IMG/VR virus record: IMGVR_UViG_3300024999_000044
Span: 64,001-128,000 of that record
Direction: 5' to 3' (one strand)
DNA: 64,000 nucleotides
From: a virus
This document shows positions 22,652 through 58,213 of this stretch, one piece after another; position 1 is the first letter of the stretch, and each line of letters opens with the position of its first letter. Made by a program: the position numbers and the translations under genes. The notes beneath the pieces were generated by a model. It was not told where the DNA came from, made no database searches, and saw only the letters and a program-made list of their open reading frames with translations.

Positions 22652-22697
22652 GAGACACAAGTATTTTAAAACATACCTGTGTCTCCATTTTATTTAA
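22652..22697 (+). terminator. Rho-independent terminator after the tube gene
   Basis: gagacaca...tgtgtctc stem followed by cattttattt. Confidence 0.6.
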
Positions 22698-22724
22698 TGA
22701 CCATTAATAAGAGGGGGAATATCG

Positions 22725-39068: not shown

Positions 39069-39108
39069 CGGGGATAATTAATACTATGATTATCCCCGTA
39101 TTTTATTT
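39069..39108 (+). terminator. Rho-independent terminator
   Basis: cggggataat/attatccccg stem followed by tattttattt. Confidence 0.65.
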
Positions 39109-39142
39109 AATGACCTATTTTTATTTAAGGAGGTATACCTTT

Positions 39143-45516: not shown

Positions 45517-45690
45517 GAAATTATTAGCCTATGCTGGATTAAAATTCATACATTAAGTATGAATTTTAAATTTAAGTATCTTAAGTATTAAGTTATCTAT
45601 TTTAACTTCTTTTTTTTTAGTTTAATTTTTTTAATACCTAAATTATTTAATTTGGCGAAGCCAATAAGTTAGTACACAGGGAGTGGAGAG
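45517..45690. promoter_or_regulatory. AT-rich intergenic region with 23-bp palindrome and TTAAGTAT iterons: candidate origin/operator region
   Basis: aattcatacattaagtatgaatt palindrome (45543-45565); ttaagtat x3 plus variant; T9 tract; next to helicase genes. Confidence 0.4.
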
Positions 45691-52066: not shown

Positions 52067-52525
52067 ATGCCTAGAAAGAAAAATTTAGAGTTTATAGAAG
52101 ATGAAAATGGTTGTTTTGTAGTAACCTCGCATGTACAAAAATGTGATGGGTACTCAGAAGTTGAGCGTAACTACAAGCGCATGAAATCACATAGACTAAT
52201 AGATGAACAGTGTTTTGGTCTTATACCTAGAGATAAGGTAGTCGGGCATAAATGTGACAATAAAATGTGCATAAACCCCGAACACCTAGAACTAGGAACA
52301 CCTGGGGAAAATTCTCAAGATATGGTTAAAAGAGGTAGATCTAAGAAAGGGGAAGAGCACCATTATAACACCAGGTTATCTTCTTCTGAAGTGAGGGAAA
52401 TTTTAAATGACAGGACTCTTTCACAGAAAGAGTTAGCAGTGAAATATGGGGTTACAGCTTCATTGATCAGCATGGTAAAGTTGAGAAAAAGATGGAAGCA
52501 TGTAAGGGTTGTTCCACATGAGTAA
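52067..52525 (+). mobile_element. free-standing HNH homing-endonuclease-like gene with C-terminal HTH
   Basis: 'GHKCDNKMCINPEHLELGTPGEN' HNH motif; inserted between the sbcC-like and primase genes; overlaps the primase start. Confidence 0.55.
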
Positions 52526-53558
52526 AATATATGACTACCTCATCCAATTACTCGGTGAGCCTAAAGCCAGACACACTACACAAAAGGGGCTCCAGTACAA
52601 CTGGAACTGCCCCTTTTGCGGTGACTCTAAGGCTAGATTCTTTGCTAACACCGATCGCAAAGTGACTTACTGTCACAATTGCGAGTACTCTGGCTCCATT
52701 ATTACGTTCATATCAGATATTAACCACATAGGGTGGAGAGATGCCCTAGAGGTATTCCGAGGTTATGAGGGCTATCAGACCAAGCTACCAGACAGCTTAG
52801 AAGAGGAAATTTATTCCAGATTCATCACTACAGGAGAGTCTTTACAGAAGAAGTATGTCTTCCCCTTACCTGAGGAATATATTAGCATGATGGAAGCGCG
52901 AGGTAAGGAGGGTCACAAGGCCTATGTGTACTTAAAAGGGAGAGGTCTTAATGCTGATGATATGGATAGATATTCTATAGGGTATTGTGCTGAAGGAAAA
53001 TACGCTAACAGGATTATCATGCCAGACTTTGAGGAGGGTAAACTCATTTATTGGCAGGCAAGATCCTTCTTACCAGAACCAAAGAGTTATGTATCTAAAA
53101 AGACTTACCGGAAGGTACTAAATCCAAGTTTAACTAAAGAACAGGTGAATCGAGGTGAAATAGCGGTAGAGAAATCTGAAGTTATCTCTAACATTGACTT
53201 GATAAAGGAACATGGTATAGCAGTCATATGCGAGGGTAGGATGGATGGCTATTCACTGGGGGATATGGGGGCATGTATACACGGTAAACATATGTCTGAT
53301 ACCCAATTTCTAAAATTGGCAACCAATCAAGATAAGATTGATAGGGTCATTATCATGTTGGACAGTGACGCTATGAGGAGTGCCATAATGTGTGCCAGCA
53401 GATTAGATAAACACTTTCCAGGGAGGGTGTCAATGTGTCACCTACCAGAAGGACAAGATCCCAATAGCATGGGTAAGGAAAAGTGTCTTGAGGCGGTAAC
53501 TACTGCATATCAGTATTCCCCCTTAACGCACATCAAGAGTAGAATTTTTCTTTCCTGA
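52509..53558 (+). CDS. dnaG: DnaG-like DNA primase (CHC2 zinc finger plus TOPRIM)
   Basis: 'CPFCGDSKARF...YCHNCEYSG' zinc finger; 'VICEGRMDGYS' and 'IMLDSDAMRSA' TOPRIM-like acidic motifs. Confidence 0.65.
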   Translation: MFHMSKIYDYLIQLLGEPKARHTTQKGLQYNWNCPFCGDSKARFFANTDRKVTYCHNCEYSGSIITFISDINHIGWRDALEVFRGYEGYQTKLPDSLEEEIYSRFITTGESLQKKYVFPLPEEYISMMEARGKEGHKAYVYLKGRGLNADDMDRYSIGYCAEGKYANRIIMPDFEEGKLIYWQARSFLPEPKSYVSKKTYRKVLNPSLTKEQVNRGEIAVEKSEVISNIDLIKEHGIAVICEGRMDGYSLGDMGACIHGKHMSDTQFLKLATNQDKIDRVIIMLDSDAMRSAIMCASRLDKHFPGRVSMCHLPEGQDPNSMGKEKCLEAVTTAYQYSPLTHIKSRIFLS

Positions 53559-53587
53559 TTTCTTTATTGTTGGAAGGGGTGAACAAG

Positions 53588-53716
53588 ATGTCCTGTGATC
53601 CAAAGAAGGATTATGATCCAGATAACTGTCCAGAGTGTTGTAATGATGCTCATGCCTGTGAGATAGTGTGGTCTGGTTGTAATAACAAGCCAATACCTAA
53701 CAAAGAAAAGGAGTAG
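53588..53716 (+). CDS. possible Cys-rich micro-protein (42 aa, 8 Cys)
   Basis: ATG after ggaagggg; MSCDPKKDYDPDNCPECCNDAHACEIVWSGCNN...; below the track threshold. Confidence 0.3.
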   Translation: MSCDPKKDYDPDNCPECCNDAHACEIVWSGCNNKPIPNKEKE

Positions 53717-53725
53717 TGATGAGAA

Positions 53726-54235
53726 ATGAAACAACATTATGATAGCTGGGGTGCACCAATACAACTTGCACCATTGCGTTATGTAAGCAAATCAGGCTTG
53801 GAATTGAAATACGCCACACCAGGTAGTGCGGGGTTAGACCTCCCTTATTGGGACCCAATGATGGATAAACTTACTATTTATCCAGGATTTCGTGCTAAAA
53901 TGCCTACTGGTGTACATGTAGAGATTCCTGAAGGGTATGTTGGACAAATAGACTCTAGAAGCAGCACCTCTAAATTATTACTACAATTACTATGCCATAC
54001 CGTAGACTGTGATTATAGGGGAGAAATATCCTTGGTATTTGCCAACGTCGGTAAGGAACCTGTTACAGTAAAACGTGGAGAATTCTATGCACAGATACTT
54101 ATTGTTCCAGTAGAACAGGTTGATCCACAAATGGTAGACTCAGTAGAAGAACTTACCCAAACAGAACGTGGGGATGGTAGTTTTGGCTCAACTACTAACA
54201 AGAAGGATGGAGGCATACCAAATGTTCAGTATTAA
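53726..54235 (+). CDS. dut: dUTPase (trimeric dUTP pyrophosphatase)
   Basis: motifs 'GSAGLDL', 'IDSRSS', 'DCDYRGE', 'RGEFYAQ'. Confidence 0.75.
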   Translation: MKQHYDSWGAPIQLAPLRYVSKSGLELKYATPGSAGLDLPYWDPMMDKLTIYPGFRAKMPTGVHVEIPEGYVGQIDSRSSTSKLLLQLLCHTVDCDYRGEISLVFANVGKEPVTVKRGEFYAQILIVPVEQVDPQMVDSVEELTQTERGDGSFGSTTNKKDGGIPNVQY

Positions 54236-54581
54236 CATGAAACCTAAATCTAATAAGCCGCTACCACTATCCTCAGAAGAGAAGAAAAAGCTAAAAGAAG
54301 AACAACGAGAAAAGCAACACATGAATAGCATGATTACCCGAGGGGAAGCTTATCAAGCATTACAAAAGATTTATGATGCTCTCATGGAAGACCGCAAACG
54401 TATAGAGATCAGCTTCATACAAGTGCAGACTCTTATTGAGGTCCTTGTTGAGAAGGAATTGACCACCAATGAGGATTTAGATAAACGCAGTATTCCTTAC
54501 GTTGAAAAGATGTATGGCAATGCGAAGAGTACTGGGGAGGTGTCTGCTGCTGATGGTGGGAGAGAAGGACAAGAAACCTAG
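54225..54581 (+). CDS. hypothetical K/E-rich protein
   Basis: start moved to ATG after ggaggcatacca (track 54168 overlaps dut). Confidence 0.4.
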   Translation, partial: FSINMKPKSNKPLPLSSEEKKKLKEEQREKQHMNSMITRGEAYQALQKIYDALMEDRKRIEISFIQVQTLIEVLVEKELTTNEDLDKRSIPYVEKMYGNAKSTGEVSAADGGREGQET

Positions 54582-55092
54582 GATAAACAGCCGAACTAAG
54601 GGTTCTGAGTATGAGCTAAGGATAAGTAAAATCCTGGCAGAATGGTACCAAGAGGACTTCCACCGAGTACCCTCCAGCGGAGGCCTCAGGTGGGGTAAGG
54701 ATAACAGAGTGTCTGGAGACATTATAGCTCAAGAGGGGTCCACCTTCCCTTTTAGCATAGAGTGTAAAAAGAGAGAGGACTGGACATTTGAGCAGTTGCT
54801 CAAGGGGGTAGGAGAGGTAGAGAGTTGGTGGGCACAATGTATCAGAGATGCCTCTAATGTGGATAAGAAACCCCTACTTATTTTTAGTAAAAACCGTTCA
54901 CCTAATTATTACATGATGTCTTTTGATGATTATTCCTTACTTGTGCATGTATCTGGTCCCATGTCTGTATTTGTATACCAACAGATTGACCGACCCACAC
55001 GTATCATAGGGATACTCAGCGATCTCATAAACACAGTATCAAAAGGTGACGTAATCAAAGCATATCAGTTACAACGAAGAGTAGAGATATAA
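54553..55092 (+). CDS. Hjc-like (archaeal-type, PD-(D/E)xK) Holliday junction resolvase
   Basis: 'KGSEYELRISKIL...SGG...GDIIAQEG...FSIECKKRED' follows the Hjc pattern G.x(Y/F)E...SG...D(I/V)IA...E.K; start after ggggagg. Confidence 0.55.
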   Translation: MVGEKDKKPRINSRTKGSEYELRISKILAEWYQEDFHRVPSSGGLRWGKDNRVSGDIIAQEGSTFPFSIECKKREDWTFEQLLKGVGEVESWWAQCIRDASNVDKKPLLIFSKNRSPNYYMMSFDDYSLLVHVSGPMSVFVYQQIDRPTRIIGILSDLINTVSKGDVIKAYQLQRRVEI

Positions 55093-55169
55093 TCTCTACT
55101 CTTTCTTATTTTCCTCAGAAATACACTACCAAAACGAGGAAACTGGAGATTGTGTCACAAAAGGGGAGA

Positions 55170-55225
55170 AAAACTGACCGACCTTAGGAATTTCCCCGCA
55201 AAATTGACCGAAAACGGTCAATTTT
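55170..55225. promoter_or_regulatory. 26-bp perfect palindrome aaaattgaccgaaaacggtcaatttt plus upstream half-site aaaactgaccga: candidate operator
   Basis: read directly; located between the resolvase gene and the next gene start. Confidence 0.45.
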
Positions 55226-55233
55226 GCGACTGG

Positions 55234-55941
55234 ATGAATTCCAGATTTTGGGGCAAAATGAAGACAGAGCAGGAGAACAACCGACACCGAGTTACAAAAT
55301 TAGGGAAGGTGGTAGATTATATGATCAACGCAACTGCTCACTTGGTGGGCGATAATGAGCAGGTTGATATCTTGTTAGGGACTAAATTAACAAAGAAGGG
55401 TGTAGATGATACAATGGCAAAAACAGCAAAAGTTACTGAGATTAATGAGGAAACTGTTGGGGAGATTGTAGCGAATGAAGAAGTAAAAATTGAGGACAAG
55501 GCAGAGGTTACCGGGAATGAAATGGGTGAAGCAATTGAGACAACCCCAGAAGCTACAGGGGATGTTACCATTGAGGAGCTATCCTCCACGGTGCCACATG
55601 AAACCTTGGAAGAGCTAAAGGGGTTTATCAAGGATATCGACACGGATACTTTGGAGTTCATTGCCACTACTCTAAGTGCAGATTGGTCCAGGCATGAGAA
55701 TGCCCCAATAAATCGTATGAGAGTGGCCATGTCCATACAAAGATACTTCTTCCCTGAGCTATTCTCCCCTAAGGAAGAAAGTGGTAAGAAGAAGAAAGCT
55801 AAGTATGCAGATCTCTCCAATGAGAAGCTATTTGAAATGGCTAAGGCCGGAAAAGTAGCCGTAGAAACAACTGGGCATGCACCAATTGACCGCATGAGGG
55901 TTATAGTGGGGCTTAAAGCAGCAGGATTGCTACCAAAATAA
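55234..55941 (+). CDS. acidic protein with C-terminal HeH/SAP-like motif (two copies of ..P I(N/D) RMRV..)
   Basis: 'APINRMRVAMSIQRYF' and 'LSNEKLFEMAKAGKVAVETTGHAPIDRMRVIVGLKAAGLL'; start moved downstream of the palindrome (track 55150). Confidence 0.45.
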   Translation: MNSRFWGKMKTEQENNRHRVTKLGKVVDYMINATAHLVGDNEQVDILLGTKLTKKGVDDTMAKTAKVTEINEETVGEIVANEEVKIEDKAEVTGNEMGEAIETTPEATGDVTIEELSSTVPHETLEELKGFIKDIDTDTLEFIATTLSADWSRHENAPINRMRVAMSIQRYFFPELFSPKEESGKKKKAKYADLSNEKLFEMAKAGKVAVETTGHAPIDRMRVIVGLKAAGLLPK

Positions 55942-56068
55942 GATGAAGAGTAAGTATCAAGAAAGGAGCAGATTTACGAATCTGTTCCTTTTATTTTTTG
56001 TACAATTGTTGGGAGGTGATGTGCATCCTTTACATTTTCTCGAAAAATCGCGAAAAATGCAATTTTTT

Positions 56069-56103
56069 TGAGCTTGTAATTTTTTCGGAATTTGAGATAA
56101 TGA
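56069..56103 (+). promoter_or_regulatory. putative sigma-A-type promoter upstream of the small sigma factor gene
   Basis: ttgtaa, 17 nt, ataat(g) in an AT-rich 260-bp intergenic region. Confidence 0.3.
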
Positions 56104-56199
56104 AAGTGGGAGTTCCGTCTTCCCTGGGTGTGGGGGAGTATTCTAACATAGCACTATTTTCACGTAGCAGATGAAAAGCAGAAAGAGAGTGAATGCTGA

Positions 56200-56820
56200 G
56201 TGTCAGAACAGGTAGAGAGACTATCATGGGAACATATCGTAGGTAAATTTGAAAGGTTGATTAAATTTGCCGCTAGGAAACGTATAGAAAATAACCCAAC
56301 AGATGGCATGATCTCGGCAGAGGATTTATTCCAGGATGGCATGATACAACTTTATGACAGTTGGATAAACTATGGGCATAAGCCTGAAGAAGAGTTTGAC
56401 CAGCTATTTAGAGCTTCCTTGTGGAGAAGAGTTAAAAGGTCTGGAGGAATACAACGAAACAACATAGACTTGTCCGATGTATCGGACACTCTTAAGGATG
56501 AGAACAACATTGACATGGTGGAGAAAATGTATGTGGGCCATGGAATAGAGCACCTTAAAACACTTCTGACTAACCCATTGTCTATAAGGTTAGTCGACGA
56601 GTTAACAGATCCTAGTGATAGAACCCACTTTGAGGTATGGGCAGATATAAAACGTAAAGAGATGCTTAAATCACAGGGTAAGAAAATAAATGTTCCCAAG
56701 GATAACACAATCAGGATGAAGCACATAATTCGCTCACTTGGCATAACTACAAAGCAGTATGATATTGCTATGTATGAGATACGTCAAAAAGCGGAATTAG
56801 CATTTGCTTTCGGAGGGTGA
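56200..56820 (+). CDS. small sigma-70 family factor (phage-encoded alternative sigma)
   Basis: region 2.2-like 'AEDLFQDGMIQLYDSWINY'; size (206 aa) like SPO1 gp28/gp34-type factors; GTG start. Confidence 0.55.
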   Translation: MSEQVERLSWEHIVGKFERLIKFAARKRIENNPTDGMISAEDLFQDGMIQLYDSWINYGHKPEEEFDQLFRASLWRRVKRSGGIQRNNIDLSDVSDTLKDENNIDMVEKMYVGHGIEHLKTLLTNPLSIRLVDELTDPSDRTHFEVWADIKRKEMLKSQGKKINVPKDNTIRMKHIIRSLGITTKQYDIAMYEIRQKAELAFAFGG

Positions 56821-56896
56821 GAGACTCTATCAGAGAGACGATTTTTCGTTACTTGATTTTTTGTTTTATACCTGAAATTTGGGAGGAAGATACAGA

Positions 56897-57343
56897 ATGA
56901 TTGACGTAACAGCCAAAATGCTAGAAACTATTAGCGGATCTACTTGTTTTGGGATAGCCTATGATGACGCCATACCGGAATGCATCCAATGTGATGTTCG
57001 TCTACAATGTAAAGCTAAATCCGGTGGAGAAGCCATACCAACTCCAACGGTTAAGGAGTCCACACCAGGAGAGGTTAAAACCCCCAAAGTAGCCAAGACT
57101 CCTAAGAACCCAATGGGTGAAAAGATTAACAAACCGGATGAAACCGAAAGTACTGTAGCTGATAAACCTAAAAAAGGAGTAAAAGAGGCACCTCCAGTAA
57201 ATACTAATTTACCGGACTTCAAGCCTATGAGTACGGAACAACTAAAGGCTCTTGCCAAGGATAGAAATGTGGAGTGGAAAGACTATGGCAATGAGAATAT
57301 TACTCGCATGAGATTAATTATGGCCTTAAAAAAGTCATACTAA
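56897..57343 (+). CDS. protein with N-terminal Cys cluster, P/T/K-rich linker and C-terminal HeH/SAP-like motif
   Basis: 'CIQCDVRLQC'; C-terminal 'MSTEQLKALAKDRNVEWKDYGNENITRMRLIMALKKSY' resembles the 55234 ORF C-terminus; start after gggagga (track 56879). Confidence 0.45.
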   Translation: MIDVTAKMLETISGSTCFGIAYDDAIPECIQCDVRLQCKAKSGGEAIPTPTVKESTPGEVKTPKVAKTPKNPMGEKINKPDETESTVADKPKKGVKEAPPVNTNLPDFKPMSTEQLKALAKDRNVEWKDYGNENITRMRLIMALKKSY

Positions 57344-57406
57344 TTTTCATAAATCCTTTAAAACGGTACTCTAGGGTATCGTTTTTCCCGTGTTAGGAGG
57401 TATAAA

Positions 57407-58213
57407 GTGGAAATCACACGTAGATCTATAGTACGCAGATCCATTTTAAGGGAGTACTGTACTTGCAGCAACGCCTTAGTTATATCCGTAAATGATATCC
57501 CCTGGATGGTGTCTGGGGATAATATGGGCGTGGATGAATTTGACGAGTTTTTACTGGGATTGTCGATATGCCCAACTATCTACTTTTCAGAACCTATTTC
57601 TAAATGCCATGCTAAGATGCGCCACGCAATTGAAAGGGGTATAAGTGTCACACTCAGTACTTATCATATACCAAATGGTGAAATAGTAAAACTGCTTTCG
57701 GGAAACCCCTGGAATTCAATTTGGATTCATATTGATCCTGTGGGAAAATTTCTAGAAACTTTATATGGAACCGGGGCTCGGAGGGGTGAAACCCTCCTGA
57801 AAATGTTTCATAAAGCCAAAAAATATGGAATTTCTCTCTCCTTAGAAATAGATGTACCCACACGCATCGGAAAGTTTTTAGACACTCTAGAGATAATAGA
57901 GATTTCTAAAAATTTCATAACAGATATGTATGTGTGGGAGCTTCCTATGACTGGTGATCCTACATCTTATGACCCTTCTTTGATGACAAGTGGAGATTTC
58001 ATATCCAGGATGTCTTCTTTTGTAAAACACAAAAGAGTTACTGTAGAATCAATGGGTGTTAAGTGGGGAAACACTACACGAATTAGACATTTCACTAAGA
58101 ACAAGTCCTTTGGGTACAGTTTCATGCACAGGAAGATAGATTTTGGTAAATTTGAACATGGTATGGATGTGGAGGAACCATGCCCTATATGTGGGATGAC
58201 TAAATTTACCTAA
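57407..58213 (+). CDS. hypothetical protein
   Basis: 268-aa ORF, GTG start after ttaggaggtataaa; C-terminal CPICG. Confidence 0.5.
   Translation: MEITRRSIVRRSILREYCTCSNALVISVNDIPWMVSGDNMGVDEFDEFLLGLSICPTIYFSEPISKCHAKMRHAIERGISVTLSTYHIPNGEIVKLLSGNPWNSIWIHIDPVGKFLETLYGTGARRGETLLKMFHKAKKYGISLSLEIDVPTRIGKFLDTLEIIEISKNFITDMYVWELPMTGDPTSYDPSLMTSGDFISRMSSFVKHKRVTVESMGVKWGNTTRIRHFTKNKSFGYSFMHRKIDFGKFEHGMDVEEPCPICGMTKFT

Follow-up and report, generated by a model that had tools for sequence, protein, structure and literature searches.

A perfect inverted repeat beside a predicted early promoter

The 64,000-nt stretch of phage DNA analyzed here (positions 64,001 to 128,000 of IMG/VR record IMGVR_UViG_3300024999_000044; hereafter, the window) comes from an uncultured SPO1-like phage and carries, at 55197-55228, a perfect 14-4-14 inverted repeat in the spacer between its homologues of SPO1 genes 24.1 and 25.1. 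The repeat is real, and as an inverted repeat between a phage terminator and a promoter it is of an ordinary kind; it is probably a lineage-specific stem-loop rather than a repressor operator. Our preferred but tentative hypothesis is that it may act as an auxiliary attenuator or insulator for read-through transcription from the gp24.1 unit.

The two arms, CGCAAAATTGACCG (55197-55210) and CGGTCAATTTTGCG (55215-55228), are 100% complementary over 14 nt each, using Watson-Crick pairs only, and are separated by the 4-nt spacer AAAA; the element is not assigned to either strand. The core, rich in G and C (GACCG/CGGTC), has AAAATT to its left and AATTTT to its right. The first-pass annotation, made from the letters of the window without database searches, had described an 11-4-11 perfect palindrome at 55200-55225 (aaaattgaccgaaaacggtcaatttt), which is present within this larger element. 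In 60 first-order Markov simulations, each of a 64-kb sequence and scored for perfect stems with a loop of ≤10 nt, the longest perfect stem measured 8 to 12 bp and never reached 13 bp or more, so that the observed 14-bp stem is longer than expected by chance. Folded as RNA, the full repeat reaches -22 kcal/mol (z = -7.0 against shuffled sequences), compared to -12.8 kcal/mol for the 11-bp version. Nine different perfect stems in the window reach 11 bp or more, and the majority are terminators at gene ends with T runs after them. A second perfect hairpin, at 45539-45569 (TTAAAATTCATAC attaa GTATGAATTTTAA), lies 22 nt past a stop codon; it shares the AAAATT...AATTTT-flanked build of the repeat, and a long T run is absent there too. 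Because the repeat at 55197-55228 is long, perfect and flanked by AAAATT/AATTTT like this gene-end hairpin, we favor a terminator-class hairpin over a protein-binding site.

For comparison, a metagenome scan for gp25.1 relatives returned at least six loci, and through cluster members we recovered a sister phage from groundwater metagenomes (loci L030-L037) with ~75% DNA identity to the window over 8 kb. Upstream of the repeat, the related half-site that had been reported at 55170-55181 (aaaactgaccga, + strand) is indeed present and shares 11 of 12 bases with the left arm (aaaattgaccga, 55200-55211), from which it is offset by 30 bp; in the same alignment column, the sister phage has aaaaatgatcga. 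This half-site is enclosed by a weak hairpin, H1 (GGGGAGA ... TTTCCCC; 55163-55197, + strand; -12.4 kcal/mol, z = -2.1), of marginal significance, for which a 7-bp outer stem is possible in the sister (-6.4 kcal/mol, z = -1.5). A three-fold repeat unit in the spacer (ACTG...GGGG/CCCC...AAAAT), spotted by eye, received no support from the sister sequence and was dropped.

The repeat is non-coding

Gene callers start the gp25.1 homologue at TTG 55150 (P0001), which would place the repeat within the protein. Homologues point to a shorter gene. Most of the 17 aligned gp25.1 homologues begin at the column of the window ATG 55321 (MINATAHLVGD), which is preceded by a ribosome-binding sequence, ggaaggtgg, at 55304-55312. 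In the sister phage, a TAG stop lies in the frame of open reading frame (ORF) 55150, 8 nt ahead of its ATG, which is the called start of the gene on 21 contigs; in the window, the frame is open solely through a 1-nt indel relative to the sister. Substitutions also lack a coding pattern: between 55150 and 55196 the two phages differ at three first, seven second and one third codon positions, with no third-position bias, whereas in the comparison genes gp24.1, gp28 and primase about half of the third positions differ compared to 9 to 25% of first and second positions. Judged by the start column of the homologues, the stop codon in the sister and the codon-position pattern, the repeat is non-coding and the conserved start of gp25.1 is 55321. 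The same three observations back the first-pass view that this stretch is not the N terminus of the downstream protein; the starts which that annotation had preferred, 55234 or 55258, are replaced by 55321.

A conserved upstream ORF from ATG 55258 was also considered and rejected. It is present in SPO1, phage JL and L024, but L025 and L028 lack the ATG and in L038 and L023 the frame stops after three and eight codons, respectively. Because this ORF is not conserved, we read the same bases as a -10 element.

A conserved, predicted early promoter and its leader downstream of the repeat

At the same place, just past the gp24.1 terminator, eight SPO1-like lineages carry the motif TTGA(T/C/A)T, a 17-bp spacer usually opening with TTTTC, and (C/A/G)AAAAT, a -10 hexamer that does not start with T in any of them. 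The lineages compared were SPO1, L023, L024, L025, L028, L038 and L040, plus the window and its sister, and the motif lies at 55231-55259 in the window, at 3604-3632 in L001, and at 3634 in L023, 3709 in L024, 173 in L025, 554 in L028, 960 in L038 and 3016 in L040. Since SPO1 gp25.1 transcripts behave as early, sigma-A-dependent RNA by reverse transcription-quantitative PCR (PMC13401047), we read the shared motif as a putative early promoter of the gp25.1 homologue. In the window, this predicted sigma-A-type promoter (+ strand) comprises TGGATG (55231-55236), 17 bp, and CAAAAT (55254-55259), with a start that would fall near 55266. Both the window and the sister carry TGGATG-17-CAAAAT, with a -35 element poorer than the TTGAYT of their relatives.

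The repeat ends 2 bp ahead of the predicted -35 region. With a start near 55266, it would occupy about -69 to -38 (center, -53.5) and the upstream half-site -96 to -85. Because the conserved promoter lies downstream, the repeat is probably outside the gp25.1 mRNA and would be found only in read-through RNA. It is therefore unlikely that the palindrome forms an RNA hairpin regulating the downstream gene, as the first-pass annotation had offered as an alternative.

An ultraconserved block (55229-55305, + strand) takes in the promoter and the greater part of the 5' untranslated region; only 4 of its 77 positions differ from the sister. Identity over 55231-55290 is 97% against a background of ~75%, making this the best-conserved 60-nt segment in 8 kb. 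The block has no coding signature, as 2 of 26 "third positions" differ compared to ~50% in real genes. Its constraint acts at the nucleotide level, with an RNA element, a protein site or a recent recombination patch as candidate causes.

The arrangement resembles the 24.1-25.1-28 early region of SPO1 in gene order and in the sigma-A-like promoter that comes after a terminator and ahead of gp25.1. It differs from SPO1, which has no such palindrome, in its weaker -35 element (TGGATG) and in the length of the spacer: ~15 to 40 nt separate the terminator from the -35 region in SPO1 and most relatives, whereas in the window and its sister the spacer is longer by ~90 to 125 nt, and the repeat lies in this additional segment. 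In SPO1, L025, L028 and L040, the terminator hairpin ends ~15 to 25 nt upstream of the -35 region. A hairpin beside the gp25.1 promoter is thus the pattern of the family, supplied in these relatives by the terminator of gp24.1.

Other promoter-like and leader elements were observed. Neither the middle nor the late promoter consensus of SPO1 (AGGAGA...TTTNTTT and CGTTAGA...GATATT, respectively) occurs in this phage. An identical motif, TTTTATTTAATGACC, occurs at 22686-22700 and 39099-39113, in both cases directly after a terminator and 25 to 40 nt upstream of a + strand gene; it may be a phage-specific, perhaps late, promoter element. Upstream of the gp28 sigma homologue, after a terminator at 55961-55992, lie two tandem promoter-like sites (56029-56058 and 56074-56101): TTTACA-18-AAAAAT, whose -10 element is again of the unusual type, and a TG-extended TTGTAA-16-GATAAT. 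In more distant relatives (L001 3640-3697, L002, L024, L025, L027 and L028), the gp25.1 leader contains a short hairpin whose sequence varies by lineage (stems GTGGGT/ACCCAC, GGAGTG/CACTCC, GGGG/CCCC and GTTGA/TCAAC), followed by an ACAAA-rich stretch and then the ribosome-binding site. This leader hairpin could be a covarying structure.

Decay of the repeat in the sister phage and copy number

At the position of the repeat, the sister phage reads GCAAAATTGATCAAAAACCGAATTTTTCAAG. In an ungapped alignment, 3 of 14 positions differ in the left arm and 8 of 14 in the right arm, and no change in the right arm compensates for a change in the left. The sister core is TTGATCA on the left, with no equivalent of CGGTCAA on the right, in an otherwise unchanged layout. 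If a 2-nt shift is allowed, the sister keeps the outer arms (GCAAAATT / AATTTT(T)C) with one mismatch and a 12-nt loop, and the stem base gains CTTG/CAAG pairs through changes peculiar to the sister on either side. The resulting hairpin (-4.9 kcal/mol, z = -1.0) is no better than shuffled sequences. The leader as a whole (55105-55330) shows the same difference, folding at -62.3 kcal/mol (z = -5.3) in the window compared to z = -0.6 in the sister. Identity over the segment that holds the repeat (55171-55230) is 68%, at or below background. The part common to both lineages amounts to an imperfect, A/T-rich inverted repeat and its phased A/T tracts; judged from this pair of sequences, only the window lineage has the perfect GC-containing core.

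No further copy turned up in the phage sequence searched. Within the window, TTGACCG-N4-CGGTCAA with up to three mismatches matched only itself. Using the terminal genes of the window, we extended the sequence by 17.7 kb beyond the window, and with up to four mismatches there was no convincing second copy in the resulting 81.7 kb, or 58% of the 141.7-kb genome. Half-sites, for which a genome-wide search had been proposed with the operator interpretation, were mildly elevated in number, with seven occurrences of TTGACCG compared to 2.9 expected and 11 of the 12-mer with up to two mismatches compared to 5.4 expected. A local enrichment of half-sites was considered and set aside, as the nearby TTGACCG at 54986 and 55886 are Ile-Asp-Arg codons whose DNA sequence the sister does not conserve.

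Outside the genome, a palindrome family in IMG/VR was rejected, since ATTGACCG-N4-CGGTCAAT occurred in nine contigs, approximately the chance expectation, with unrelated flanks. Among GTDB genomes, AATTGACCG-N4-CGGTCAATT gave 21 matches in 20 loci against a rough chance estimate of ~9; many were full 22-bp palindromes, mostly in unrelated taxa, and 6 of the 21 lay in metagenome-assembled genomes (MAGs) of Peregrinibacteria/Peribacteria. The Peregrinibacteria/Peribacteria-related loci are L055 (4259-4280 and 5491-5512), L042, L046, where the copy lies inside an ORF, L059 and L060. In L055, the two copies have conserved flanks and bracket a gene that looks DUF1016-like by eye. No link between the GTDB palindromes and the phage was established. 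Rfam 15 gave no gathering-level match in the window, with chance-level hits only (E > 0.7) across 54900-56300, and a distant blastn search with the spacer returned chance matches only. A megablast search of 53000-58000 against 50,697 phage records found no near-identical phage.

Possible roles of the repeat

The repeat lies in an intergenic cassette that runs from a terminator to a predicted promoter. The gp24.1 terminator (55076-55113) is followed after ~85 nt by the repeat (55197-55228), after a further 2 bp by the predicted promoter (55231-55259), and then by the gp25.1 start at 55321. The repeat would act on read-through transcripts of the early gp24.1 unit, as a back-up attenuator or insulator keeping upstream transcription away from the gp25.1 promoter, in a manner similar to the stem-loops of PeSL (promoter-early stem-loop) cassettes in T4-type phages. 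In phages RB49 and phi1, the PeSL stem-loop attenuates transcription arriving from upstream, and in one PeSL subclass it lies upstream of the -35 box (PMC2839356). Like a PeSL, the window cassette is an intergenic unit with a host-sigma early promoter (predicted here), an A/T-rich region upstream of it and a stable stem-loop adjacent to it. Unlike the window repeat, PeSLs number ~50 per genome, have GGGG...CCCC stems and mediate recombination; the repeat has no sequence relation to them, belongs to a phage of another family (Herelleviridae-like), and occurs once in 82 kb, where neither the promoter pattern nor the palindrome recurs as a cassette family.

The perfection of the arms probably arose in one step that changed several bases, for example a template switch by which an earlier, imperfect inverted repeat was corrected, rather than by selection for a protein site. 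The clustering of differences in the right arm argues for one such event over point mutation. Quasipalindrome correction by template switching, the Ripley model, was reportedly first described in phage T4, and the repeat resembles its expected product in that one arm shows clustered multi-base differences from the sister while being exactly complementary to the other arm. The Ripley model concerns origin, not function, and, as no outgroup is available, the direction of change here is not established.

Several observations weigh against an attenuator or insulator. Like Rho-independent terminators of the bidirectional type, the repeat has a stable GC-containing stem, a 4-nt loop, a 5' A run and a 3' T run. 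Unlike them, it does not sit directly at a gene end: it lies ~105 nt past the gp24.1 stop, behind a genuine terminator and with no gene between. The GC-rich core is followed by only TTTT and then GCGACTGG (GCG), short of the five or more T in eight that usually follow a terminator stem; moreover, the full 14-bp stem pairs this T run, leaving ACTGGATG after the stem, and a terminator scan left the repeat unflagged. A strong terminator already stands ~85 nt upstream, which would make a second one redundant. The sister hairpin does not stand out from shuffled sequences, so selection for structure is unproven, and two lineages provide no statistical power for covariation. The repeat may simply have no function.

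We consider that last alternative possible, though somewhat less probable than an attenuator or insulator. While the DNA was being replicated or repaired, a template switch within one molecule could have perfected an imperfect inverted repeat inherited from an ancestor, or two A/T tracts upstream of the promoter, the product then being tolerated in a spacer that is barely or not transcribed. This would explain a single-copy element whose arms match perfectly in the window but have degenerated in the one sister lineage, with changes clustered in one arm, in a segment whose identity is at or below background right beside a promoter and leader that have hardly changed; more distant SPO1-like relatives, which lack the extra spacer, fit this picture as well. 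However, the outer inverted repeat and phased A/T tracts occur at the same place in both lineages, which hints at some constraint, and the persistence of a 14-bp perfect palindrome, expected to be somewhat unstable, is mildly surprising. Furthermore, no outgroup carries the segment, so the change cannot be polarized as loss in the sister or gain in the window.

The first-pass annotation had called the palindrome a typical dimeric helix-turn-helix (HTH) operator, and a site for a dimeric, sequence-specific DNA-binding protein, encoded by phage or host and repressing or activating the early gp25.1 promoter, is an unlikely alternative with some geometry in its favor. As in the operators of phages lambda, 434 and P22, the repeat has two-fold symmetry next to a promoter, with the centers of TTGACCG and CGGTCAA 11 bp apart; the third half-site, 30 bp upstream, is in helical phase. 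The repeat abuts a promoter whose poor -35 element would suit dependence on a factor, SPO1-type early promoters are shut off during infection (PMC13401047), and full palindromes recur in some bacterial MAGs, including the six Peregrinibacteria/Peribacteria matches. Conservation points the other way. The recognition bases are lost in the sister despite an identical layout and a promoter and leader that are 97% identical, and, unlike the lambda, 434 and P22 operators, the repeat is a single site with much longer, perfect arms. Natural operators are usually shorter and less perfect than 14 perfect base pairs, which makes the 14/14 arms atypical. To our knowledge, the shut-off factors of the SPO1 group (gp33, gp44/50/51 and TF1) are not classical operator-binding repressors. 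The presence of only one site in 81.7 kb and the coding context of the nearby half-sites at 54986 and 55886 also count against an operator.

Nor is there an obvious binding protein: no classical repressor-type HTH protein was found among the Pfam-called genes in the 82 kb examined. The first-pass candidate, ORF 52067 (52067-52525, between the SbcC-like and primase genes), proved to be an HNH_3 homing-endonuclease-like protein whose C-terminal HTH_3 match is weak and sub-threshold, and comparison with solved structures returned no match. In the sister phage, it is absent and an unrelated 90-amino-acid ORF takes its place. ORF 52067 looks like a free-standing homing-endonuclease insertion, and its co-occurrence with the perfect repeat, a single comparison, seems to fit a mobile endonuclease better than a repressor. 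The more specific proposal, that the repeat and its in-phase half-site form the operator of an unrecognized dimeric regulator switching the early gp25.1 promoter in this groundwater lineage, we regard as quite improbable.

A similarly doubtful suggestion, slightly more so in our estimate, is that the phased A/T tracts are the functional part, as UP-element-like or curved upstream DNA that would aid RNA polymerase at a weak -35 element. The tracts (AAAA at 55200, AAAA at 55211 and TTTT at 55222) are ~11 bp apart, and both tracts and spacing are kept in the sister where the GC core is not. They lie at about -66 to -41 from the predicted start, in the UP-element zone, and the -35 element is degenerate in exactly the two lineages that have the extra upstream segment. 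Upstream A-tract curvature is known from older work to stimulate SP82/SPO1-type early promoters. Against this, the window is only ~50% A+T from -59 to -38, with no match to the UP consensus, and the perfect GC-containing complementarity is left unexplained. Finally, a leader RNA hairpin in the gp25.1 mRNA that controls translation or stability, or coding sequence from TTG 55150, is very hard to credit: strong folding of the window leader and an open frame used by gene callers speak for it, and the downstream promoter, the lack of excess folding in the sister leader, the sister stop codon, the homologue starts, the non-coding substitutions, the lack of an Rfam family and the unconserved short ORF at ATG 55258 speak against it.

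Genomic context

The window belongs to a 141.7-kb contig (ERZ27254726:k141_465162) in an ENA metagenome assembly. Gene order follows SPO1 genes 21.9 to 27.4, with phage JL as a further comparison: an SbcC-like nuclease, primase, dUTPase, gp23.1, gp24.1 (PDDEXK_15), gp25.1, the gp28 sigma factor, gp27, gp27.1 and two reverse-strand genes. The early genes of SPO1 include gp24.1, gp25.1, gp26.1 and gp28 (PMC13401047). The first-pass annotation had placed the palindrome between a "resolvase" and a "HeH-protein" gene, a placement that holds with the flanks now identified as gp24.1 and gp25.1 homologues. The former (54553-55092, + strand) was called as a 179-amino-acid PDDEXK_15 endonuclease (Pfam PF24608, E = 3.5e-50), in agreement with the gene order of SPO1 and JL. 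Its intrinsic terminator (55076-55113, + strand), flagged by the terminator scan, has a 13-bp stem (hairpin at 55076-55104) overlapping the stop codon and the tail CTTATTTTCC. This hairpin folds at -16.1 kcal/mol (z = -5.1), and the sister retains it at -19 kcal/mol, an A-T pair of the stem being replaced there by G-C in a compensatory change.

The gp25.1 homologue (55321-55941, + strand) was identified by the 17-homologue alignment and by tblastn matches to SPO1 gp25.1 and JL gp144. It shares ~50% identity with SPO1 gp25.1 and Bacillus phage homologues across its C-terminal half and 51% identity with the sister protein, with a gap of ~23 amino acids in the N-terminal domain. The window homologue (55321-55440) lacks these ~23 residues of a small N-terminal domain (consensus, ...TLKEVAxLLGVxKVTxKD...), which the sister and other homologues keep. 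The gene is thus remodeled in the window lineage, through this N-terminal loss and the 1-nt indel that fuses the upstream frame to it. Elsewhere, a further protein with a sigma-70 region 2 is encoded at 711-1943, and an HU/TF1-like DNA-binding protein adjoins a thymidylate-synthase-like gene just past the end of the window (L062 5533-5877). Both fit SPO1-type biology.

Implications for SPO1-like phages

The repeat alone matters little, as neither its conservation nor its copy number argues for a regulatory circuit, and it would matter only as a protein-binding switch on the gp25.1 promoter. Were it an operator, a strictly lytic SPO1-like phage would have a classical operator-repressor circuit, and the recurrence of the palindrome in Peregrinibacteria/Peribacteria might point to a regulator family or an unexpected host. 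The surrounding context is more informative. It places the true gp25.1 start at 55321, where gene callers had extended the gene to 55150, and it reveals a predicted sigma-A-type promoter conserved upstream of gp25.1 across SPO1-like phages, as well as a 77-nt promoter-plus-leader block under far stronger nucleotide-level constraint than the flanking genes. In SPO1, transcription switching involves gp25.1 and its paralogue gp27 as regulators or as proteins that form condensates (PMC13401047). Given these roles, how the early expression of the two is set is a reasonable question.

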